Virus record (IMG/VR): IMGVR_UViG_2547132281_000002 | Location: 1-25,592 of that record | DNA length: 25,592 bases | Reading direction: 5' to 3' (one strand) | DNA from: a virus | Taxonomy: Duplodnaviria > Heunggongvirae > Uroviricota > Caudoviricetes | Part shown: positions 3,283 through 17,645 of the stretch, in pieces | Numbering within the stretch: position 1 is the first letter of the stretch | Layout of the letters: every line of letters starts with the position of its first letter | Made by a program: the position numbers and the translations under genes | Notes under the pieces: model-generated | What the model was told of the DNA's origin: nothing | Database searches by the model: none | Seen by the model: the letters and a program-made list of their open reading frames with translations, nothing else

Positions 3283-3567
3283 TTTGTCGCTCCATGCGCT
3301 TGCTCTTCATCTAGCGGTTAAAATATTACTTCAAATCTTTCTGTATGAAGATTTGAGCACGTTGGCCTTACATACATCTGTCGGTTGTATTTCCCTCCAG
3401 AATGCCAGCAGGACCGCACTTTGTTACACAACCAATACTATTAATTGAAAACATTCCTAATATTTGACATAAATCATCAACAAAACACAAAGAGGTCAGA
3501 CCAGATTGAAACGATAAAAACGATAATGCAAACTACGCGCCCTCGTATCACATGGAAGGTTTTACCA

Positions 3568-3978
3568 ATGGCTCAGGTTGCCATTTTTAAAGAAATATTC
3601 GATCAAGTGCGAAAAGATTTAAACTGTGAATTGTTTTATTCTGAACTAAAACGTCACAATGTCTCACATTATATTTACTATCTAGCCACAGATAATATTC
3701 ACATTGTGTTAGAAAACGATAACACTGTGTTAATAAAAGGACTTAAAAAGGTTGTAAATGTTAAATTCTCAAGAAATACGCATCTTATAGAAACGTCCTT
3801 TGATAGGTTGAAATCAAGAGAAATCACATTTCAGCAATACAGGGAAAATCTTGCTAAAGCAGGAGTTTTCCGATGGGTTACAAATATCCACGAACATAAA
3901 AGATATTACTATACCTTTGATAATTCATTACTATTTACTGAGAGCATTCAGAACACTACACAAATCTTTCCACGCTAA
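3568..3978 (+). CDS. ybcV: DUF1398-family protein, DLP12 YbcV-like, 136 aa from an internal ATG
   Basis: ...[58 protein letters not shown].... The ORF track extends it to 3445; I chose the ATG at 3568 to match the recalled YbcV length. Confidence 0.65.
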
Positions 3979-6352: not shown

Positions 6353-7435
6353 ATGAAAAAATTAACAGTGGCAATTTCTGCTGTAGCTGCATCAGTACTG
6401 ATGGCGATGTCTGCTCAGGCAGCTGAAATTTATAATAAAGACAGTAACAAGCTGGATCTGTACGGGAAAGTTAATGCTAAGCACTACTTCTCCTCTAATG
6501 ATGCAGATGATGGTGATACTACTTATGCCCGTCTTGGCTTCAAAGGTGAAACCCAAATCAACGATCAACTGACTGGTTTCGGTCAGTGGGAATATGAATT
6601 CAAAGGCAACCGCGCTGAATCTCAAGGTTCCTCCAAAGACAAAACCCGTCTTGCATTTGCAGGCCTGAAATTCGGTGACTACGGCTCAATCGATTACGGC
6701 CGTAACTACGGTGTAGCATACGACATCGGTGCGTGGACTGACGTTCTGCCAGAATTCGGTGGCGATACCTGGACCCAAACAGATGTATTCATGACTGGTC
6801 GCACCACAGGTGTTGCAACTTATCGTAACAACGACTTCTTTGGTCTGGTTGATGGCCTGAACTTTGCAGCTCAGTATCAGGGCAAAAATGACCGAAATGA
6901 AGTAACTGAAGCTAATGGCGATGGTTTCGGTTTCTCAACTACTTATGAGTATGAAGGATTCGGCGTGGGTGCAACCTATGCTAAATCTGATCGCACTAAT
7001 AATCAGGTTATCTACGGTAACAACGGTCTGAATGCTTCTGGTCAAAATGCTGAAGTATGGGCAGCTGGTCTGAAATATGATGCGAACAACATCTATCTGG
7101 CCACCACCTATTCTGAAACCCAGAACATGACTGTTTTTGGTAATAACCATATTGCCAACAAAGCACAAAACTTCGAAGCTGTTGCACAATATCAGTTCGA
7201 CTTCGGCCTGCGTCCATCCGTTGCTTACCTGCATTCTAAAGGAAAAGACTTGGGTGTTTGGGGTGATCAGGACCTGGTTGAATATGTTGATGTAGGTGCA
7301 ACCTATTACTTCAACAAAAATATGTCCACTTTTGTTGACTACAAAATCAACCTGATTGATAAGAGCGATTTCACGAAAGCATCTGGCGTTGCTACCGATG
7401 ATATCGTTGCTGTAGGTATGGTTTACCAGTTCTAA
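6353..7435 (+). CDS. nmpC: Outer-membrane general porin, NmpC/OmpD/Lc family, apparently intact, 360 aa
   Basis: [23 protein letters not shown] signal peptide, then [17 protein letters not shown]... and a C-terminal ...VAVGMVYQF. Lies between Q and the lysis genes on the opposite strand, as in DLP12. Confidence 0.85.
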
Positions 7436-7623: not shown

Positions 7624-8007
7624 TTAATTAGAGTTATTAACAACGATATCCATCTCTAACCGGATATCTAATGCCATTAACATCCCTTCAATTATGCCCT
7701 CAGCCTTCTGTAACCTTTTCCCGATATAACCATCAGAGCAGCAATGCTTACCTGCCAGTGACATGAATGTCATACCGACTACATAATAATCTACTAATAA
7801 ATCGTGCAAATCGCTGTTGTTCTTTTTCAGACGGGCCATGCACCCGCAAATGATCATCGCGTCATCGTCACAACATTGCGGGCGAGATTTTACTTTTGAA
7901 GTAATTAATCCCTTAAAACCGGCGGCAATGGACGACCAGGTCACATCTTCATGATTATTAGCCGCCCACGCTCCCCAACGCTCAAGAACCATCTGAATAT
8001 CACGCAT
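7624..8007 (-). CDS. quuD: Late-gene antiterminator Q (DLP12 QuuD-like), 127 aa
   Basis: [62 protein letters not shown].... Last gene of the nin-Q block. An alternative upstream ATG lies at 8022. Confidence 0.8.
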
Positions 8008-8092
8008 CAACTTACTCCACAAAAATCAGACCAGAACGCCAATTACAAGCAAAAATCAACGAAACAGTATTAGTTGATTGTTATCTCTGACT

Positions 8093-9042: not shown

Positions 9043-9497
9043 TACGCCTCCTGCTTGTCGCGGAGCAGCTGGAACTCGCAGCTCTGCGGAATAGTCAGGT
9101 GGCAGCCAATATTCACCGCCCAGGCTTCAACCTTACACAGGAAGACATACATCTCTCCGGTATCAAGATCGGAGGTATGGCGTAACGACTGGATAGTGGT
9201 GATATCACCGGTTACGACATCAACCAGGTCTTTGGTTTCATAACCGAGATATGTGTGTTTGAGAGCATCTTTTACCCAAGCTGGAGTAGCGAACGTTTTA
9301 CCCCTGCTGATGAGGTATTCACTGATTTCGCTGTACCACATGTGGCTGAGTGCATTCTGGGAAAGACTGCGTTTCTCACGCCACGGTTTAAGCACCATGC
9401 GAAAGCATTTGCCCTCCTCCAGATAAGGCTGGATCTGCCGACCGATAGCGGTGAAGTTACCGCGATGTAATTTGATGCCATCTTGTGGGAGATTCAC
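9042..9497 (-). CDS. ybcN: NinB-family recombination protein (DLP12 YbcN-like), 151 aa
   Basis: [62 protein letters not shown]... matches YbcN from memory. Confidence 0.85.
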
Positions 9498-9684
9498 GCT
9501 TCACCTCCGCAGAGGTCAAACGCTGGATACAATATATCGCAGGTGCATTTCTGCATCTGTGGAGGGAGAAGAGAGTTTGGATTGTGTGTGCGCATAAACG
9601 TCCCCGTTTAGCGCAGAAGTCACCGGAGTTGTTCAGGCTCCGATGACATGATTATGGCGAGTTGATTATCGCAAATCAAAGGTT

Positions 9685-10041
9685 TTAATTGTGCTTTATT
9701 CCTTCAAGCGTTGCCTTCATACCAACCAAAGAAATGTTTAGCTCTCCAACTTTCTCAGGGCTATATAATTCAGAATGAAGCCAATATTCTGATTTATCTA
9801 AACATCTTTTAGCCAGCTCTCGATCAAAGTCTACGACTTGGGAAGACGCTTCATACCAAAGCCTATAAAGTTTTTCTTCTTCGTTTGGGTTATTAGGCTC
9901 ACCACGTTTTAATTTTTCAGTATATAAAATTGTTGAATAAATCGCAGGAGTTAATCCAGTGATTGCCCTCTGCCGCAGATCGGATTTGTTTGTTATCCAC
10001 CCCAACAGACGATCTCCCATCCATGTGATAATTGTATCCAT
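9685..10041 (-). CDS. Uncharacterised 118-aa protein, AT-rich cargo gene
   Basis: MDTIITWMGDRLLGWITNKSDLRQRAITGLTPAIYSTILYTEK.... An RBS-like AAGAAGGG lies 8 nt upstream. No family recognised; no predicted transmembrane segment. Confidence 0.55.
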   Translation of the reverse strand: MDTIITWMGDRLLGWITNKSDLRQRAITGLTPAIYSTILYTEKLKRGEPNNPNEEEKLYRLWYEASSQVVDFDRELAKRCLDKSEYWLHSELYSPEKVGELNISLVGMKATLEGIKHN

Positions 10042-10937: not shown

Positions 10938-12464
10938 TCAAAAATAAACCTCACCATCAACCATATATTTGAGAGTACTTATCGCCTGCTGGGCGGATAT
11001 TGTTTTCATTAAAGGATAGTGTTTAAAAACAATGCCATTCATAAAATAGATATCACAGGTTTTATTATCTGTATTGATTATGATTTTTTCGAATGTTTTA
11101 TAGGCAAGTGTACGACATAGCTCTCGCCCATTTTTACTGTTTAAGTCAATAGCATGAAAATCACCAAGTGAACTCACCGCTTTACTCTTCAAAGTTTTTA
11201 ATGATACAGAAGCCCTTCGTAATTCCTTATCTAATACTCTGATTTTTTCTGCTATAGCGGTAACTTCAGGCGCAACAGATAATGCAGCAATTAAATTATT
11301 AATTTTCATCTGGAGCTCAATAATTTTCAACTCTAAAGTTTCATTAGCATCTTTCTTGTTTTCAACTGGTTGGATTTTACTACAATTAAAAAGCAACTCA
11401 TTAATGATATTATAATCAACCAAATCTCTCTTTATTGATGGCCTGTCACATCGATGCAGTCTTCTCATCGGACAAACATAATAGCCATGCAAACTTCCAG
11501 ATACCGCATGAACAATCATGGTATTACCACAAGCCTCGCACTTCATAACTGTTCGAAGTAGATTTATCAACATAGGATTTTTGCTACTATTGCTAATACC
11601 AAAAGGTGCCAACCGAATTTCCTGTACAGCGTAAAACAAATCATCTGATATGACTCTGGGATAATAGCCAGCGATTTCACTTATTCCTTTACCTCTTGCA
11701 CGATATGAAGGTACGCATATACCTATCAGAGCTTTATTCGCTAATAATTTTTCAATTACAGAAGGTCCCCATGCACTTTCTTTTCCTGAGAAATTCTTTA
11801 CAGCATGATCATTTAAATACTTGGCTATTGCATTCAATGAGCGCCTTTCCATCCTGAGTTTAAAAATTAGCTCAATAGTTTTCACCCTGTCGGGGTCTGG
11901 AACAAAAGCCGTTCTTTTGTCATCTAAGGAGAGCCATCTCGGACAAGACGCCGTCATAATCGTACCTGATTCCAGTGCATCCTGCCGTTTTTTCTTCCAT
12001 GATAATTTAACCCGACTTGACTTTATCTCGCTTTCTTCATTTGCCCTTTGTGCTATAAGTATGGCTTTTATTAATGAATATGGCTCATTCAAAGAGTCAA
12101 TATTATAGACTGTATTGTCGCAAAGAGTTATAACATCAATACCGTGATTCAAAATCAATTTCAGACGTTCAATCGCTTCACCGACTTTTTCTCTTGAAAG
12201 TCTGTCCAGACTTTCAACTAACAATGTAGTTCCTGGCAATATATAACCATGCTCTATAGCATCTAAAAATTCCGAAAAAGCTCCTGATTGTGCATGCTTT
12301 CCTTTGAATGCACTTAATCCTAAATCTTCATATGTTATGGTATCAAGATAATAATCACTATTTACCTTTAACCATTCAGCAATAAGTCTTCTCTGTCGGT
12401 TTAATGAGTCGCCAGACATCTGACCTGGTGATGAAAATCGCATATATGCTATGGCTTTTTTCAT
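10938..12464 (-). CDS. ybcK: Large serine recombinase (DLP12 YbcK-like), 508 aa
   Basis: N-terminal resolvase-like MKKAIAYMRFSSPGQMSGDSLNRQRRLIAEW... with catalytic Ser in the YxRxSS context. Central recombinase region, a Cys-rich zinc-ribbon-like stretch (CEACGN...CPMRRLHRC) and a coiled-coil tail. Strongly AT-rich. Confidence 0.85.
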   Translation of the reverse strand: MKKAIAYMRFSSPGQMSGDSLNRQRRLIAEWLKVNSDYYLDTITYEDLGLSAFKGKHAQSGAFSEFLDAIEHGYILPGTTLLVESLDRLSREKVGEAIERLKLILNHGIDVITLCDNTVYNIDSLNEPYSLIKAILIAQRANEESEIKSSRVKLSWKKKRQDALESGTIMTASCPRWLSLDDKRTAFVPDPDRVKTIELIFKLRMERRSLNAIAKYLNDHAVKNFSGKESAWGPSVIEKLLANKALIGICVPSYRARGKGISEIAGYYPRVISDDLFYAVQEIRLAPFGISNSSKNPMLINLLRTVMKCEACGNTMIVHAVSGSLHGYYVCPMRRLHRCDRPSIKRDLVDYNIINELLFNCSKIQPVENKKDANETLELKIIELQMKINNLIAALSVAPEVTAIAEKIRVLDKELRRASVSLKTLKSKAVSSLGDFHAIDLNSKNGRELCRTLAYKTFEKIIINTDNKTCDIYFMNGIVFKHYPLMKTISAQQAISTLKYMVDGEVYF

Positions 12465-12647
12465 GGTGACACCTGCTAACGTATGCTTTTATAAACCTTA
12501 GTGGTGGGATATAATTTTTGTTTAATTTTTATTTAAAAAGACAATTAAGGTCACATTATCTTGAATATACAACAATAATCGTATTGCAATTTTCTTACGC
12601 CATAATCTTGAAAGCACAAAAGAATACATAAAAAAATAAAGACATTA

Positions 12648-12689
12648 ACAAAAAGCATAAAACGAGGCTCATATAAATATAAGAGCCTC
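12648..12689 (-). terminator. Rho-independent terminator downstream of emrE
   Basis: On the minus strand, stem gaggctc/gagcctc with a 12-nt AT loop followed by GUUUUAUGCUUUU. Confidence 0.5.
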
Positions 12690-12720
12690 CATATTTTAGT
12701 CGTTTAGAAACAAATTATTT

Positions 12721-13053
12721 TTAATGTGGTGTGCTTCGTGACAATAAATTAATAACCAACACACCGGCACAAATCAACATCATGCCTATAATGGCTGGCA
12801 GGTCCAGCCGTTGGCCGAAAAGTCCCCATGACAGTAAGCTAATCAGGACAATACCGACTCCTGACCAGATAGCATAAGCAATCCCTGTAGGAATATAAGC
12901 CAGCGTCTGAGCTAATAACCAGAATGATGCACAATAACAAATAATTGTACCAACAGATGGCCATAACCGTGTAAAACCTTCTGAAAACTTCATTAAGGTT
13001 GTACCAATGACCTCTGCAAGTATTGCACCACCAAGATAAATATAAGGGTTCAT
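12721..13053 (-). CDS. emrE: Small multidrug resistance (SMR) efflux transporter EmrE, 110 aa
   Basis: MNPYIYLGGAILAEVIGTTLMKFSEGFTRLWPSVGTIICYCASFWLLAQTLAYIPTGIAYAIWSGVGIVLISLLSWG... matches EmrE from memory, including the conserved membrane Glu in the first helix. Confidence 0.9.
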   Translation of the reverse strand: MNPYIYLGGAILAEVIGTTLMKFSEGFTRLWPSVGTIICYCASFWLLAQTLAYIPTGIAYAIWSGVGIVLISLLSWGLFGQRLDLPAIIGMMLICAGVLVINLLSRSTPH

Positions 13054-13120
13054 AGAATATTCTTTCCTGTTCAAACTGGAGAGAATTGTACTACAGTTTG
13101 AACTCAACTCACCTGTTTCA

Positions 13121-13423
13121 TCATTGTGTACCCATTGATGTTCTTTTATATACCCTCAATACCCGTTTCATCGCGGCACTCTGGCGACACTCCTTAAAAA
13201 TCAGATTCGTGCTCACCTTTCCTTCCCGTTCTTCTCTGGTAGCAAACCGGTAATACACCGTTCGCCAGACCTTACCTTCGATAGCCAGAAGACCTGCCCG
13301 TGCCATTTTAGCCGCAGCCTGATTTATGCTGGTTACCGTTGCGCCTGTTACCGCGGCAACGTCCTGCGCACAGAATTTCTTATGAGTCCCCAGGTAATGA
13401 ATAATTGCCTCTTTGCCCGTCAT
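13121..13423 (-). CDS. ren: Ren (lambda Rex-exclusion escape protein), 100 aa
   Basis: MTGKEAIIHYLGTHKKFCAQDVAAVTGATVTSINQAAAKMARAGLLAIEGKVWRTVYYRFATREEREGK... matches lambda Ren. Overlaps the P stop (ATGA). Confidence 0.85.
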   Translation of the reverse strand: MTGKEAIIHYLGTHKKFCAQDVAAVTGATVTSINQAAAKMARAGLLAIEGKVWRTVYYRFATREEREGKVSTNLIFKECRQSAAMKRVLRVYKRTSMGTQ

Positions 13424-14121
13424 ACCCTTGCTCCTTTCAGCCCAAACTTAGCTTTGATTTCTGCGATCTTCGCCAGAGCCTGTGCACGATTTAGAGGTCT
13501 ACCGCCCATGACAGGAAGTTGTTTTACTGGTTCAGGTATAGCCTCACCACGGTTAATTCGTGCGGTCATACAGGACAGTTCATCGGCAGCCTTGCGCCGT
13601 AATTCCGCGTCAGTCAACGCATTGGCCCGCATGTTCTGATACAGGTTGGTAACCAGCCAGTAGTGCGCGTTTGATTTCCACGGATAAGACTCTGCATCCG
13701 GATACAGCCCGCGCTTCCGGCAATACTCGTAAACCATATCAACCAGCTCGCTGGCGTTTGGCAGCCCGGCGGTAACAGATGCTTCTTCCCGGCACCAGGC
13801 GACAAACTGCCCGGGTGATGGCAGGAATGGTCGATTCTGCCGACGGGCTACGCGCATTCCAGCGTTAACCTGTTCCATTGTGGTGATCCCGTTTTCCCGA
13901 AAAGCCAGCACCCACTGGCGGCGGATTTCGTTCAGTTCATTCTGGTCACGGTTAGCCAGGCTCGCCGGGAAAGTTGCCAGTAACTGGCTGAACACACCGT
14001 TGATGATCTGCGCTACCTGCTGTACCTGCGGCTTTTCGTCGTACTGTTCCGGCATGTTGTTGGCGATCCGACGCATCTGCTCACGGTCAAAGTTAACCAT
14101 CTGTGCGGCGATGTTTTTCAT
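13420..14121 (-). CDS. P: Replication protein P (DnaB helicase loader), 233 aa
   Basis: MKNIAAQMVNFDREQMRRIANNMPEQYDEKPQVQQVAQIINGVFSQLLATFPASLANRDQNELNEIRRQW... is near-identical to lambda P as recalled. Confidence 0.95.
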   Translation of the reverse strand: MKNIAAQMVNFDREQMRRIANNMPEQYDEKPQVQQVAQIINGVFSQLLATFPASLANRDQNELNEIRRQWVLAFRENGITTMEQVNAGMRVARRQNRPFLPSPGQFVAWCREEASVTAGLPNASELVDMVYEYCRKRGLYPDAESYPWKSNAHYWLVTNLYQNMRANALTDAELRRKAADELSCMTARINRGEAIPEPVKQLPVMGGRPLNRAQALAKIAEIKAKFGLKGARV

Positions 14122-15047
14122 AAATCCACCCCGTAAATCCAGTCAGTGTTTGTCAGGTCGAGTTTTGGTTTGCTGGCTATCATGCCTGCCTGTTGCTTGT
14201 TACGGTTGATTTCGAGTTGGGTCCACTTGTCGCGGAGTTTGGCCGGACTTAGCACGTTACCGGACCAGAAGTTGTCCTGGCATGCCCAGCGGAAAAGCAC
14301 GCACATGTCGCGGTGGTTACGTCCGTCACGTTCACGCATCAGGCGGATATCGTTAGCCCACCCTGCAAAATTCGGTTTTCTGGCTGATGGTGCGATGGTC
14401 TTCACCATGTCAAACATCCACTCTGCGGCGGTCAGGTCTTCTGCTGTCCCCCACTTGCTGCCGCTCTGAATTGCAGCATCTGGTTTCACCACAGGAAGAT
14501 CGTTTTCTGGTTGGTCAGAGGATTCGCCAGAATTCTCGGACGAAAAAGGTTTTATATTGTCTTTTGTTAGTTTGTCTTTTGTGTTTACCTGATTCGGGTA
14601 AACGCCTTTACCTGATTTGGGTAAACTTTTCTTACCTGATTCAGGTAAATTTACCTCTTTCAGGTAAACTTTATTTTTCTTACCTGATTCGGGTAATGTT
14701 GACCATTCACTGACCACATTATTAATACCGATATTCCGCCCGCTCTGAATCAAAATCCCACGCTTTACCAGAACACTTTTTGCAGCAGAACACTTGTGCG
14801 GTAATATCCCGGTCAATCCGGACAGTTGCTCGTTGCTCACCCAATCCAGTTTTTTATTAAAGCCATATGTTTTGCGCATGACAGCCAGGAAGACCAGAAG
14901 CTGGTGCTGTGTTAATCCGGCCAGCATCACAGCTTCCAGCAACTCATTTGCAATGCGCGTATAACCATCATCGAGATCTGCCACGCGCGGCTCCTTTTGT
15001 GCCGCATCCGGCACTGGAAAATTGAATATCTCAGCAGTGTTTGCCAT
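14118..15047 (-). CDS. O: Replication initiator O-like protein (non-lambda specificity), 309 aa from the RBS-preceded ATG
   Basis: MANTAEIFNFPVPDAAQKEPRVADLDDGYTRIANELLEAV... shares the lambda O N-terminal motif VADLDDGY. Repeated LPESGKK peptides are encoded by the iterons. GGGAGG lies 5 nt before the ATG at 15047. Overlaps the P start (ATGA). Confidence 0.8.
   Translation of the reverse strand: MANTAEIFNFPVPDAAQKEPRVADLDDGYTRIANELLEAVMLAGLTQHQLLVFLAVMRKTYGFNKKLDWVSNEQLSGLTGILPHKCSAAKSVLVKRGILIQSGRNIGINNVVSEWSTLPESGKKNKVYLKEVNLPESGKKSLPKSGKGVYPNQVNTKDKLTKDNIKPFSSENSGESSDQPENDLPVVKPDAAIQSGSKWGTAEDLTAAEWMFDMVKTIAPSARKPNFAGWANDIRLMRERDGRNHRDMCVLFRWACQDNFWSGNVLSPAKLRDKWTQLEINRNKQQAGMIASKPKLDLTNTDWIYGVDL
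14584..14698. repeat. ori: Replication origin: five about 19-bp iterons (consensus TTACCTGATTCGGGTAA) inside the O gene, flanked by an AT-rich tract
   Basis: tttacctgattcgggtaaac, tttacctgatttgggtaaac, cttacctgattcaggtaaat, ttacctctttcaggtaaac and cttacctgattcgggtaatg, each an internal inverted repeat. AT-rich tract at 14540-14583. Confidence 0.75.
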
Positions 15048-15133
15048 AATTCCTCCCGCAATGAGTGTGTTACGATTTGCACCTGAAAGTCGGTTCTGTT
15101 CCAGCAGACCGGCTTTCGCCATTTCTGAACCTG

Positions 15134-15673
15134 TCATATCGCCCCCAGCATGGTAGTAACCATCGCCATCAATGGACCAGCCAGATCTGGGTCCACACGA
15201 AACATCGATACAATACCTTCACTAATTTCCTTCAGTTTCTGGTGGCGTGGTGCGTTGAGAATGACAGCCTGTTTTGCCTCACTGAGTTCCTTTTCCATTT
15301 CAGCCAACCTGGCCATGAAGCTATCCTGCTCAACCAGGTAACCGCGATATTCCAGCGGTAGTACCGCCAGAATTGCCGGGGTCAGTTCACGCACGTTATT
15401 TCGGTATTTTTCAGAATCGAATTTGTTATCGAGGAAGCGGAACAGCTTCTGGCGTGCACGGCTGACATCATCAGGGAAATCGATGGTGCCGCCGCCCTGC
15501 TCCCGATACTCATTCACAATGAGTGTGGCAACGACATCCTGATTATCTACAGCCGACCAGGCGCGGACGGCATCACGGATTTTTTCGTGGCCTGGCACCT
15601 GTTTTGTTTGAGAACGATTTATCACCGCAGTCGGGCTAAATCCGCTAGTCTGTTGGTATGGAAGTGGTTGCAT
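15134..15673 (-). CDS. ydaT: YdaT-like protein (Rac-type ydaS/ydaT module) at the cII position, 179 aa
   Basis: ...VNEYREQGGGTIDFPDD...VRELTPAILAVLPLEYRG... resembles Rac YdaT as I recall it (EEYLRQGGGE...IPAILAILPRELR). RBS AAGGAG upstream. Confidence 0.55.
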   Translation of the reverse strand: MQPLPYQQTSGFSPTAVINRSQTKQVPGHEKIRDAVRAWSAVDNQDVVATLIVNEYREQGGGTIDFPDDVSRARQKLFRFLDNKFDSEKYRNNVRELTPAILAVLPLEYRGYLVEQDSFMARLAEMEKELSEAKQAVILNAPRHQKLKEISEGIVSMFRVDPDLAGPLMAMVTTMLGAI

Positions 15674-15721
15674 AATTGACTCCTTTAGTTTGAATTGACT
15701 GTTAAGTTGATTGCTTATTGT

Positions 15722-15730
15722 TAAAGAGCG
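15722..15730 (-). promoter_or_regulatory. boxA-like element (CGCTCTTTA) about 15 nt downstream of the cro-like stop, the nutR position
   Basis: The minus strand reads ...CACGCTCTTTAACAATAAG..., an exact match to the boxA consensus CGCTCTTTA. No boxB-like hairpin follows. Confidence 0.35.
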
Positions 15731-15742
15731 TGAAATGGAAAT

Positions 15743-15973
15743 TTAAGCTGCGTTCTTTTCGGTGTGTGGAAACAACTTCGGAAGATCCGGGCGAATCTGG
15801 TATGCCTTCACTACTCCACCAGTAGCCGTAACAATGCTGCCGACATGTTCAGGGGATACCTTTGCTTTGTTGTGAAGCCACTTATAGACGGCCTGCTGTG
15901 AAACTTCGCAAGCAGCGCCCAGTTTCTTTTGTGAACCAACGATATTGATCGCTGTTTTGATAGCTGGGTTCAT
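15743..15973 (-). CDS. cro: Cro-like HTH regulator (YdaS/Cro family), 76 aa
   Basis: MNPAIKTAINIVGSQKKLGAACEVSQQAVYKWLHNKAKVSPEHV... has a helix-turn-helix and is divergent from the repressor. GGAGG lies 7 nt before the ATG. Confidence 0.7.
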   Translation of the reverse strand: MNPAIKTAINIVGSQKKLGAACEVSQQAVYKWLHNKAKVSPEHVGSIVTATGGVVKAYQIRPDLPKLFPHTEKNAA

Positions 15974-16077
15974 AACAACCTCCGTGGTTAATTTGAATCA
16001 AGATTAAAACTATGGTTGTTTTTAGTCAACAACCATTTTCGTTTGATGGAATAAAACCTTGGTTGTACATTTGGACT
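15974..16077. promoter_or_regulatory. Divergent operator/promoter region (oR, pR, pRM analogue) between cro-like and cI
   Basis: A 104-bp interval with repeated ACAACC/GGTTGT half-sites, for example ATGGTTGT-N9-ACAACCAT at 16011-16035 and AACCTTGGTTGT at 16057-16068. Confidence 0.55.
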
Positions 16078-16767
16078 ATGAAAACAACACTCTCAGAAAG
16101 ACTTAAAGAAGCCAGATTAGCGCGAGGCCTTACACAAAAGGCGCTTGGGGATTTGGTCGGGGTTAGCCAGGCTGCTATTCAGAAAATCGAAACAGGGAAA
16201 GCTAATCAAACAACTAAAATCGTGGAGATCGCGAACGCTTTGGGTGTGCGCGCAGAATGGTTATCTTCTGGCGTTGGAAATATGTCAGACAGTACAGTGC
16301 AACCAATACAATCAACTGTCAGCCATTCCAAATACTTCAAGATTGACGTTCTTGATATAGAAGTCAGTGCTGGGCCGGGAGTCATCAACCGTGAGTTTGT
16401 AGAAGTTCTACGCTCGGTTGAGTACTCGTTTGACGATGCTCGTCACATGTTCGATGGTAGGAAGGCGGAAAATATCCGCATCATTAACGTGCGTGGTGAC
16501 AGCATGTCAGGAACGATCGAACCAGGTGATCTGCTGTTCGTTGATATCACAGTTAAATCTTTCGACGGTGATGGTATCTATGCGTTTCTGTACGACGACA
16601 CAGCCCATGTAAAGCGCCTGCAAATGATGAAGGATAAGCTGCTGGTCATCTCTGATAACAAAAGCTACTCACCGTGGGACCCGATCGAGAAAGACGAGAT
16701 GAACCGGGTGTTCATCTTCGGTAAGGTTATTGGGAGCATGCCGCAGACATATAGGAAGCATGGGTAG
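16078..16767 (+). CDS. cI: CI-type prophage repressor: N-terminal HTH (XRE) plus C-terminal LexA-like S24 autopeptidase, 229 aa from the internal ATG
   Basis: MKTTLSERLKEARLARGLTQKALGDLVGVSQAAIQKIETGK... (HTH), then ...INVRGDSMSGTIEPGDLLFVD...HVKRLQ... (Ser/Lys dyad motifs). The ORF track's upstream start at 16012 overlaps the operators. Confidence 0.85.
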   Translation: MKTTLSERLKEARLARGLTQKALGDLVGVSQAAIQKIETGKANQTTKIVEIANALGVRAEWLSSGVGNMSDSTVQPIQSTVSHSKYFKIDVLDIEVSAGPGVINREFVEVLRSVEYSFDDARHMFDGRKAENIRIINVRGDSMSGTIEPGDLLFVDITVKSFDGDGIYAFLYDDTAHVKRLQMMKDKLLVISDNKSYSPWDPIEKDEMNRVFIFGKVIGSMPQTYRKHG

Positions 16768-16888
16768 TACCAATTAAAAATTATCAACTGGGCATTGTGC
16801 TCATTCAGTAAAGAACTAATTCCTATCTTTGCTCTAGGTAGTAATATTAAGCCACCGCAATAATATCTTTACCTAACGGCGTAAGAAT

Positions 16889-16915
16889 CCCGGTCACCGT
16901 GCCGGGTTTTCTTTT
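16889..16915 (+). terminator. Rho-independent terminator after cI
   Basis: Stem cccgg ... ccggg followed by ttttcttttg. Confidence 0.5.
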
Positions 16916-17039
16916 GCCCTCCCCTCATCACACACACCGTTAAAAAAACCACCATAACCTCGCTTCAGTTATCGCTATGCGATTCAAGTCACAAAATAAA
17001 TCCATCCTAAATACAACCAGTTATATCTAAAACAACCAA

Positions 17040-17100
17040 TAAAACAACTTTTGTTGTTGACGATAAAACAACTATAGTTTTAAATAAGTTCATCGCAACA
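17040..17100 (+). promoter_or_regulatory. Candidate pL/oL: promoter-like hexamers with operator-like ACAAC/GTTGT repeats
   Basis: ...aaaacaaccaataaaacaacttttgttgTTGACGataaaacaactatagttttaaataag... shares half-site motifs with the cI-cro intergenic region. Confidence 0.4.
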
Positions 17101-17362
17101 ACACAACGATACGGCAACTACCTGATTCACCGTTGCGATGACCGCTTAGATCCGCAGTTTGAATTTCAGCAGGCTTCGGGGAGTGCGAGGGGTGAAACGG
17201 ACGCGTGAACGTCGGTGTGACCAGCTGAAATTAACTCAACATTTCATACCTCAGTCGCTTCAACGAGGCGGCTTAGTTATGACAACCGGCGGCCATCCAC
17301 CGCCTGAATATGCGCAGAAGTCTCTATATGTTCAGCAGCCCAGCTTACGGGCAGGAGTTTTT

Positions 17363-17569
17363 ATGGTTCATCAACATTACGGAACACAGACCGTTAATCG
17401 CGGCGCGGTCATGCCAGGAATGCTGGTCAAACACAAAGATGGTACCTGGACTGCATCAGCTAATTTACGCGGACGGCTTTATCTGCATCGCGGCATCGAG
17501 CGCACTTATACCAGTGATTTGCTCGTGGAAGTTTTTCTCGACGGACGCGGTAACGGCCTGAATCACTAA
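17363..17569 (+). CDS. kil: Kil-like host cell-division inhibitor (Rac KilR-like), 68 aa
   Basis: MVHQHYGTQTVNRGAVMPGMLVKHKDGTWTASANLRGRLYLHRGIERTYTSDLLVEVFLDGRGNGLNH. AGGAG lies 6 nt before the ATG. The pattern HxxGT...PG..V.H..G....ASAN...VFL..G matches my recollection of KilR. It is the first gene of the leftward operon, immediately upstream of gam. Confidence 0.5.
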   Translation: MVHQHYGTQTVNRGAVMPGMLVKHKDGTWTASANLRGRLYLHRGIERTYTSDLLVEVFLDGRGNGLNH

Positions 17570-17645
17570 CCCCCCTTTCCTGTTTTCCTAATCAGCCTGG
17601 CATTTCGCGGGCGATATTTTCACAGCCATTTTCAGGAGTTCAGCC

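Follow-up and report, generated by a model that had tools for sequence, protein, structure and literature searches.

The window analysed here is a stretch of 25,592 nucleotides (nt) from a virus of the Caudoviricetes (positions 1 to 25,592 of IMG/VR virus record IMGVR_UViG_2547132281_000002). An open reading frame (ORF) map and scans with hidden Markov models (HMMs) identify its content as the early region of a lambdoid prophage, in which the operon that is called rightward in lambda lies on the minus strand. Our subject is the immunity region, where the gene for a 229-residue CI repressor (16078..16767, plus strand) diverges from two minus-strand genes, one of the cro type (15743..15973, 76 residues) and one of the cII type (15134..15673, 179 residues), which are followed by the replication genes O and P. 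The same gene order is found in the immunity regions of phages phi80, HK639, and HK225. On the plus-strand side, cI is followed by a terminator, a promoter region, and kil-like, gam, bet, and exo genes. A preliminary description, which covered the interval from the cII-type gene to position 16077 and thus stopped exactly one base short of cI, had seen here a hybrid switch, with a LexA-like repressor facing a YdaS/YdaT pair instead of cro and cII. We confirmed that every element of that description is present and in its place, and Pfam and PHROG assignments agree that an S24-type CI faces Cro-like (YdaS-like) and YdaT-like partners.

The region is widespread. A 2.2-kb stretch (15000-17200) occurs at 100% identity in many Escherichia coli chromosomes, and it was found at a coverage of at least 80% in 1496 of 5426 complete genomes. 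Phage PhiR34_1 is 99.9% identical to the region, and its record annotates cI, Cro, cII, O, and P. In the complete phages PhiR34_1 and Turner, for which the deposited host is E. coli K-12 or E. coli C, the immunity region is 99.9-100% identical to the one described here. Literature searches for this exact immunity group returned nothing specific. The phi80-type cI-cro-cII switch found here is an already known and very common immunity region of E. coli prophages.

The 179-residue protein is central to this identification. It had been described as YdaT-like, and an HMM search bears this out with a match to Pfam YdaT_toxin (PF06254; E = 8.5e-30; 103.5 bits against a cutoff of 21). The same protein matches PHROG 163, "CII-like transcriptional activator" (E = 3.9e-67), while no NCBIfam model matched it. 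Furthermore, it is 66% identical to phi80 cII, including the version in the original early-region record X13065, and a tblastn search of phage genomes returned 15 near-identical E. coli phages in which it bears the annotation cII. RefSeq names it "toxin YdaT domain-containing". Phi80 cII itself is recognised by the Pfam YdaT model at 98.7 bits. The preliminary description had treated a match to cII as the opposite of a match to YdaT, which was a false dichotomy: both matches were obtained. Because the YdaT family includes phi80-type cII, the statement that a YdaS/YdaT pair stands here instead of cro-cII is a naming artefact. Nor does the combination with an S24 repressor make the switch a hybrid, since an S24 CI goes together with a YdaT-type CII in each of phi80, HK639, and HK225. 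In an IMG/VR neighbourhood count, which looked for a divergent S24 repressor within 2.5 kb upstream of a YdaT-type cII, such a repressor was present in 47 of 48 loci of this type, in 55 of 72 HK639-type loci, and in at least 6 of 75 Klebsiella-type loci.

The predicted structure points in the same direction. An AlphaFold2 model of the 179-residue protein, built on 28 homologues, is all-helical and has a mean predicted local distance difference test (pLDDT) score of 74.6; residues 30-110 mostly exceed 80 and residues 1-26 are disordered. Its only significant matches in the PDB were the YdaT structures 3c4r and 8bt1 (probability 1.00; template modelling score, normalised by target length, 0.65-0.71). 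The model has the elements of the YdaT-family fold, that is, a POU-like helix-turn-helix (HTH) followed by a long oligomerisation helix, with an arginine in recognition helix alpha3. Specifically, the recognition-helix segment QKLFRFLD (F78-R79) aligns with QKIFRWLD (F59-R60) of the YdaT of prophage CP-933P, and R79 is invariant in the 28 homologues. The arginine of the YdaT recognition helix has been reported to be essential and invariant in the family (PMC9986795). Overall identity with the YdaT proteins of Rac and CP-933P is about 26-28%. On sequence evidence, the YdaT-family protein is the cII of this phage lineage. Its 76-residue neighbour, encoded by the first gene of the pR operon, belongs to Pfam YdaS_toxin (PF15943; E = 4.1e-17; 62.2 bits against a cutoff of 30) and to PHROG 35, with weaker, below-cutoff matches to P22_Cro and HTH_3. 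Its best PDB match is the prophage Cro 3bd1 (E = 7e-4), and the gene is annotated as Cro in PhiR34_1.

The repressor combines two familiar domains. Its gene begins at the ATG at 16078, as in RefSeq, and not at 16012. The protein matches Pfam HTH_3 and Peptidase_S24 (E = 1.2e-18), and among structures its N-terminal domain resembles the repressor of phage 434 (E = 4.5e-9) and its C-terminal domain resembles UmuD' (E = 1e-4). In an alignment with the CI proteins of phi80 and HK639, Gly99, Ser142 (in GDSM), and Lys179 (in VKRL) are invariant. The cleavage site is Ala98-Gly99, at which the aligned phi80 position reads Cys-Gly; the protein thus has both hallmarks of the S24 family, a Ser-Lys dyad and an Ala-Gly (or Cys-Gly) site in the linker. 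The spacing of 37 between serine and lysine matches that of LexA. Since the cleavage and dyad residues are those needed for RecA-stimulated self-cleavage, we infer on good grounds that CI is SOS inducible.

Three candidate promoters can be read by eye in and around the intergenic regions. On the minus strand, pR (16001..16029) would have TTGACT as its -35 element (16029-16024) and either TAATCT (16006-16001, with a 17-nt spacer) or TTTAAT (16008-16003) as its -10 element. On the plus strand, pRM (16043..16071) would consist of TTGATG (16043-16048), 17 nt, and TACATT (16066-16071), and pL (17057..17085), upstream of kil-gam-bet-exo, of TTGACG, 17 nt, and TTAAAT. The putative pR and pL are nearly identical; read along the pR strand, they share GTTGTTGAC(T/G)-A-(A/T)-AAAACAAC(C/T)ATAGTTTTAA. 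The predicted start of pRM, at about 16078, is the A of the cI ATG, so that the cI mRNA would be leaderless, and no Shine-Dalgarno sequence lies ahead of 16078. Leaderless mRNAs have been described for lambda cI and CP-933P paaR2 (PMC8630535). The promoter layout, including the predicted leaderless cI, appears to copy that of lambda and 434. Downstream of cI, an intrinsic terminator (16889..16916, plus strand) is formed by CCCGGTCACCGTGCCGGG and a T-run.

The preliminary description had also noticed that ACAACC/GGTTGT half-sites recur near pL. They do, and the full sites are 14-bp, 434-like palindromes, three at the right operator (OR) and two at the left operator (OL). We scanned the 25.6-kb window for ACAAC-N4-GTTGT with at most one mismatch and compared the outcome with 100 shuffles. 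Five sites were found against 0.88 expected, and none of the 100 shuffles reached five. The sites start at 15975, 16006, 16053, 17044, and 17068, all within 15975-16066 or 17044-17081, and the window outside OR and OL holds none; the two regions proposed earlier as operators (15974-16077 and 17040-17100) contain all five. OR1 (16006..16019; minus strand ACAACCATAGTTTT) lies in the pR spacer and -10 element. OR3 (16053..16066; AAAACCTTGGTTGT) lies within the pRM spacer and the edge of its -10 element. OR2 (16029..16042; ACAACCATTTTCGT), which has two mismatches, touches the pR -35 element and abuts that of pRM; it fills the register between OR1 and OR3 at a spacing of 23-24 bp to each, its geometry matches that of OL2 relative to pL, and its centre lies at about -42.5 from the predicted pRM start. 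At the other end of cI, OL1 (17068..17081; ACAACTATAGTTTT) is in the pL spacer and -10 element, and OL2 (17044..17057; ACAACTTTTGTTGT), with perfect palindrome arms, touches the pL -35 element. Thus, at pR and pL alike, the first operator occupies the spacer and -10 element, and the last base of the second is also the first of the -35 element. The remaining one-mismatch site (15975..15988; ACAACCTCCGTGGT) lies over the ribosome-binding site of cro. It may serve as an auxiliary operator, or its resemblance to one may be due to chance overlap with GGAGG; it is conserved among loci with the same CI HTH, where it is counted among the three OR sites with at most one mismatch. Upstream of OL2 (17014-17038), two ACAACCA half-sites at 17014 and 17032 have no recognisable partner half and may be a degenerate OL3. 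One by-product of our analysis is therefore an explicit map of operators and promoters for this immunity group.

Related loci provide a natural domain-swap control for the operators. A second immunity type, represented by 19 loci, was compared with the window over 15673-16330. In these loci the CI S24 domain and cII are identical to those described here, but the CI HTH is only 54% identical, cro is 48% identical, and the intergenic region and operators are different. One mosaic junction lies near CI residue 85, and the other coincides precisely with the cII ATG. When operators and CI HTH were compared across 52 related loci, three motif sites were present at OR in all 33 loci with the same HTH and none in any of the 19 with a different HTH. 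The operators are real, and across related loci the motif follows the DNA-binding domain of CI.

Comparison with phage 434 helps to define what kind of operators these are. The 434 operator consensus is ACAA-N6-TTGT, and the sites here have the same ACAA...TTGT ends, the same 14-bp length, and the same arrangement of three at OR spaced by 23-24 bp, in keeping with the likeness of the CI N-terminal domain to the 434 repressor. Still, the recognition helix reads SQAAIQKIETG, whereas that of the 434 repressor is TQQSIEQLENG, so that the two repressors need not share the same specificity. In addition, the fifth operator base pair (C/G) is conserved here, unlike in 434, and Cro and CII belong to families other than those of 434, which uses a lambda-type cII.

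Phi80 is the closer relative in overall design. Its cI, gene 30 (cro), cII, M3 RNA, and genes 15 and 14 have the same order and orientation as their counterparts here, its CI likewise joins an HTH to an S24 domain, and its record annotates CI operators together with pR, pRM, and pL, with three operators at OR and further operators at pL, as in our layout. The specificity determinants are different. Phi80 CI is only 24% identical to the CI described here, similarity between the Cro proteins is marginal (BLASTP E = 0.003 over 26 residues), with phi80 gene 30 a borderline match to Pfam YdaS, and phi80 operators are 19 bp long instead of 14, from which it follows that immunity specificity differs. 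Phages HK639 and HK225 carry a YdaS-type Cro (Pfam E = 9e-17) and a YdaT-type CII (52% identical), as here, and HK639 has an S24-type CI of the same length, 229 residues, that is 44% identical. HK639 also shares the region upstream of ybcN with this prophage. Both phages differ in operator and HTH specificity and have a short cro-cII spacer with a hairpin.

Two cryptic prophage switches, RacR-YdaS-YdaT of Rac and PaaR2-YdaS-YdaT of CP-933P, have been studied more closely, and in both, as here, YdaS and YdaT are equivalents of Cro and CII (PMC8630535, PMC9986795, PMC11879457). Jurenas et al. described Cro-like and CII-like functions in CP-933P and the homology of its YdaT to phi80 CII (PMC8630535), and the equation of YdaS/YdaT with Cro/CII has been made elsewhere in published work (PMC5917428, PMC8630535, PMC9986795). 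The Rac and CP-933P repressors have leaderless mRNAs, as predicted here, and their YdaT proteins appear, by model comparison, to have the same fold as our 179-residue protein. In contrast to the CI of this region, the repressors of Rac and CP-933P have no S24 autocleavage domain and do not respond to SOS (PMC8630535).

Taken together, our results suggest, with a probability of about 0.88, that the region is an ordinary phi80-type lambdoid immunity switch (cI-cro-cII) with 434-like operators, working in the manner of lambda and 434. In a lysogen, CI dimers would occupy the 14-bp operators (half-site A-C/A-A-A-C-C/T-A). Bound at OR1 and OR2 and at OL1 and OL2, CI would silence both pR (cro-cII-O-P) and pL (kil-gam-bet-exo). 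From OR2, centred at about -42, it is positioned to activate pRM and so would sustain a leaderless cI mRNA, and OR3, inside pRM, would allow negative autoregulation. Upon DNA damage, RecA filaments would promote self-cleavage of CI at Ala98-Gly99 through Ser142 and Lys179, after which pR and pL would fire and the YdaS-type Cro would take over the same operators. During infection, the YdaT-type CII, which by comparison with the solved structure of CP-933P YdaT should form tetramers and carry a POU-like HTH, would bind TTGATT-N6-AATCAA-like sites near cro and cII, drive leftward (pRE-like) transcription of cI, and in this way establish lysogeny. This account serves chiefly as a correction, since one of the commonest immunity regions of E. 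coli prophages looks exotic under database names such as "toxin YdaT".

Several observations weigh against this account. The DNA specificity of phi80-type CII is extrapolated from relatives that are only about 26-28% identical to the 179-residue protein. No YdaT box, whether perfect or with one mismatch, occurs in the immunity region, where only relaxed matches were found. Consensus scanning gave no convincing pRE on the plus strand between 15560 and 15760. The scanner missed pR, pRM, and pL as well, which were assigned by eye and analogy, and for that reason its silence on pRE means little. Finally, the window bears DLP12-like cargo and a match to Rfam IS009, which bears on whether this copy of the prophage is inducible.

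Several sites are candidates for the action of CII. The YdaT binding site, as defined in the paper on the YdaT structure and in a 2025 study of Rac, is TTGATT-N6-AATCAA, and YdaT switches on a reverse promoter that serves the repressor gene (PMC9986795, PMC11879457, PMC8630535). The YdaT proteins of Rac and CP-933P are 30% identical, yet each binds the box of the other (PMC11879457), so that a similar specificity is, by analogy, a reasonable prediction for the 179-residue protein. Unlike the boxes of Rac and CP-933P, the box-like sites near cII are imperfect here. With a relaxed pattern, TTGATW-N6-WATCAA with at most two mismatches, sites are over-represented in the immunity region, whose 600 bp hold three against a background of 1.8e-4 per position. 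The candidate at 15984..16001 lies in the cro 5' leader and reads TTGATTCAAATTAACCAC on the minus strand; in the alternative immunity type, a perfect relaxed box, TTGATAATGACAAATCAA, lies across the cro ATG. The candidate at 15707..15724 (TTGATTGCTTATTGTTAA) lies between cro and cII, in DNA specific to this immunity type, and TTGATT, 18 nt, and TGAAAT there could be a leftward promoter. The candidate at 15608..15625 (the +48 site; at most two mismatches) is inside cII codons 17-22, in DNA common to both types. Part of the lambda pRE lies within cII. Since the mosaic junction falls exactly at the cII ATG, a pRE site common to both types should likewise lie within cII, and we regard 15608..15625 as the best guess for the pRE-associated site. 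The aligned position has one mismatch in mEp237 and one or two among mEp237, the Klebsiella phages ST974 and ST16, and the alternative-immunity loci, a conservation that is confounded by coding because the stretch encodes a conserved peptide. Two codons near the 5' end of cII are unusually fixed (Leu4 is CTT in 6 of 7 and Ile18 the rare ATA in 6 of 7). We considered DNA-level constraint in this part of cII on these grounds, but the codon signal is weak, confounded by the same peptide, and suggestive only.

The one thread of wider interest lies outside the immunity region. A perfect YdaT box, TTGATT-N6-AATCAA (TTGATTATCGCAAATCAA), occurs at 9662-9679, where about 0.0015 would be expected per window. 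It overlaps the -35 element and spacer of a conserved promoter (9651-9679, minus strand; TTGATT, 17 nt, CATAAT) upstream of the ninB-like gene ybcN, such that the first half of this nin box is the -35 element itself; the same -35 and -10 elements are annotated as putative signals in the record of phage 82. Across 14 variants of the promoter, the -10 element never varies, and the sequences flanking it upstream are unrelated to one another. The box half-sites are unchanged in 12 of the 14, while the 6-bp spacer takes 10 different sequences. Of the two exceptions, phi80 has the symmetric TTGATA/TATCAA and the other has TTGAGA in one half. Within 9590-9679, read in the minus-strand sense, the box is followed by the leader of the putative transcript, which is predicted to fold into two very stable hairpins at -30.1 kcal/mol (z = -5.7), and the arms of the first stem differ in phi80 but are still complementary. 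This leader could be a put-like antiterminator or a regulatory RNA. An Rfam search of the whole window at gathering thresholds and an E-value search of 9450-9720 gave nothing relevant, and literature searches for a put RNA in HK639 returned nothing specific.

Whether the nin box depends on the type of CII can be judged from its distribution. The box is present in 37 of 59 loci with an HK639-type CII, 1 of 64 with a Klebsiella YdaT-type CII, and 0 of 46 with a lambda CII, and a ybcN homologue is present in 37, 2, and 1 of these, respectively. The box also occurs in two of three ybcN loci with a lambda-like cII. It therefore follows the ybcN module instead of the CII type; linkage to CII was not demonstrated, and CII binding there is only a hypothesis. 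A second target of phi80/YdaT-type CII at the ybcN promoter, through which it might tune nin and Q expression in a role like that of lambda paQ, seems doubtful on present evidence. If true, action at this promoter and leader would extend the known CII regulon in lambdoid phages that lack N. A one-mismatch box (TTGATAGGTTGAAATCAA) also occurs at 3800-3817, inside a DUF1398 ORF (3445-3978, plus strand).

Other explanations of the locus can be weighed against an ordinary phi80-type switch. The preliminary description held that a toxin-like YdaS/YdaT module had replaced cro-cII and that the switch might couple the choice between lysis and lysogeny to growth inhibition. The Pfam family names and the RefSeq name all say "toxin", and expression of Rac YdaT leads to filamentation and death (PMC11879457). 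However, that toxicity arises from ectopic expression activating a host promoter, rcsA (PMC11879457), CP-933P YdaT is not toxic (PMC8630535), and overproduced lambda CII is toxic as well (cited in PMC5917428). An older reading of YdaS/YdaT as a type II toxin-antitoxin pair has been tested and rejected in published work (PMC8630535, PMC5917428), and we set it aside here on three grounds: the pair sits inside the pR operon and runs straight into O and P, the CI opposite has operators of its own, and the supposed toxin is by fold a DNA-binding regulator and an orthologue of cII. Given also the 66% identity to phi80 cII and the same architecture in classical phages and most related loci, the proposed coupling has no specific support, and a toxin-bearing hybrid is highly improbable.

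A different possibility accepts the protein as a DNA-binding regulator and makes it mainly a repressor, one that damps pR and cro as well as the nin promoter upstream of ybcN and Q, instead of an activator of pRE. Such a role would fit the box-like site in the cro leader (15984-16001), the box over the cro ATG in the alternative type, the perfect box over the ybcN -35 element and spacer, and the failure of scanning to give a clear pRE, and the footprint of Rac YdaT does cover the ydaS promoter (PMC11879457). Yet both YdaT proteins that have been studied activate the leftward promoter from which the repressor is expressed (PMC8630535, PMC11879457), record X13065 lists the phi80 gene as cII, and the nin box goes with the ybcN module and not with the CII type. 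Phi80 cII was identified through clear-plaque mutants; this implies that it acts positively when lysogeny is established and counts further against repression as the main function. We consider this possibility unlikely. The last alternative concerns the state of the region, which might belong to a cryptic prophage such as Rac or DLP12 and have decayed, so that its switch no longer governs a viable phage and it survives only as a cassette of repressor and regulator. The DLP12-like cargo in the window (emrE, the ybcK recombinase, and an nmpC-like porin), the IS009 match, and frameshifts of some neighbours in RefSeq copies speak for such decay. Nevertheless, every immunity gene is intact, the regulatory sites are intact and conserved, and the region is 99.9-100% identical to that of the complete genomes of PhiR34_1 and Turner, which makes decay improbable.

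Beyond the switch, the replication genes yielded a second by-product, a probable mis-annotated start of O. The annotated 339-residue ORF (14118-15137, minus strand) overlaps the cII stop, but homology in the PHROG 277 alignment starts at residue 31, which aligns with the start of phi80 gene 15. We therefore think that the annotated start at 15137 is probably wrong and that Met31, at 15047, is the true one, which would place O (Pfam Phage_rep_O) at 14118..15047 and leave a gap of 86 bp between cII and O. The gap region holds, on the plus strand, a promoter-like TTGAAT, 17 nt, and TG-CATAAT (15022-15050) and a hairpin at about 15085-15117 (z = -2.4). This element sits where phi80 has its antisense M3/oop RNA, so that both phages may have an oop-like element between cII and O. 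Gene P follows at 13420..14121 on the minus strand (Pfam Phage_lambda_P, E = 8e-62).

Downstream of pL, no N-like antiterminator gene was found in 17086-17570, and the phage lineage appears to lack N. A leader of about 270 nt precedes the first recognisable gene, which is kil-like (PHROG 294) and is followed by gam, bet, and exo. This pL leader is no more stable than its shuffles (z = +0.83), and a put-like RNA is unsupported there. Between ren and the nin region, the DLP12-like cargo (10938-13107) consists of emrE, an SMR efflux pump (ORF at 12721-13107), and the large serine recombinase gene ybcK (10938-12464). As in DLP12, a general porin gene resembling nmpC (6353-7435, plus strand; Pfam Porin_1, E = 3.6e-152) is situated between a Q-like antiterminator gene (7624-8022, minus strand) and the lysis genes. 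The Rfam IS009 (RF02111) match, with 229.5 bits, covers 160-358 on the minus strand, close to where the window begins.

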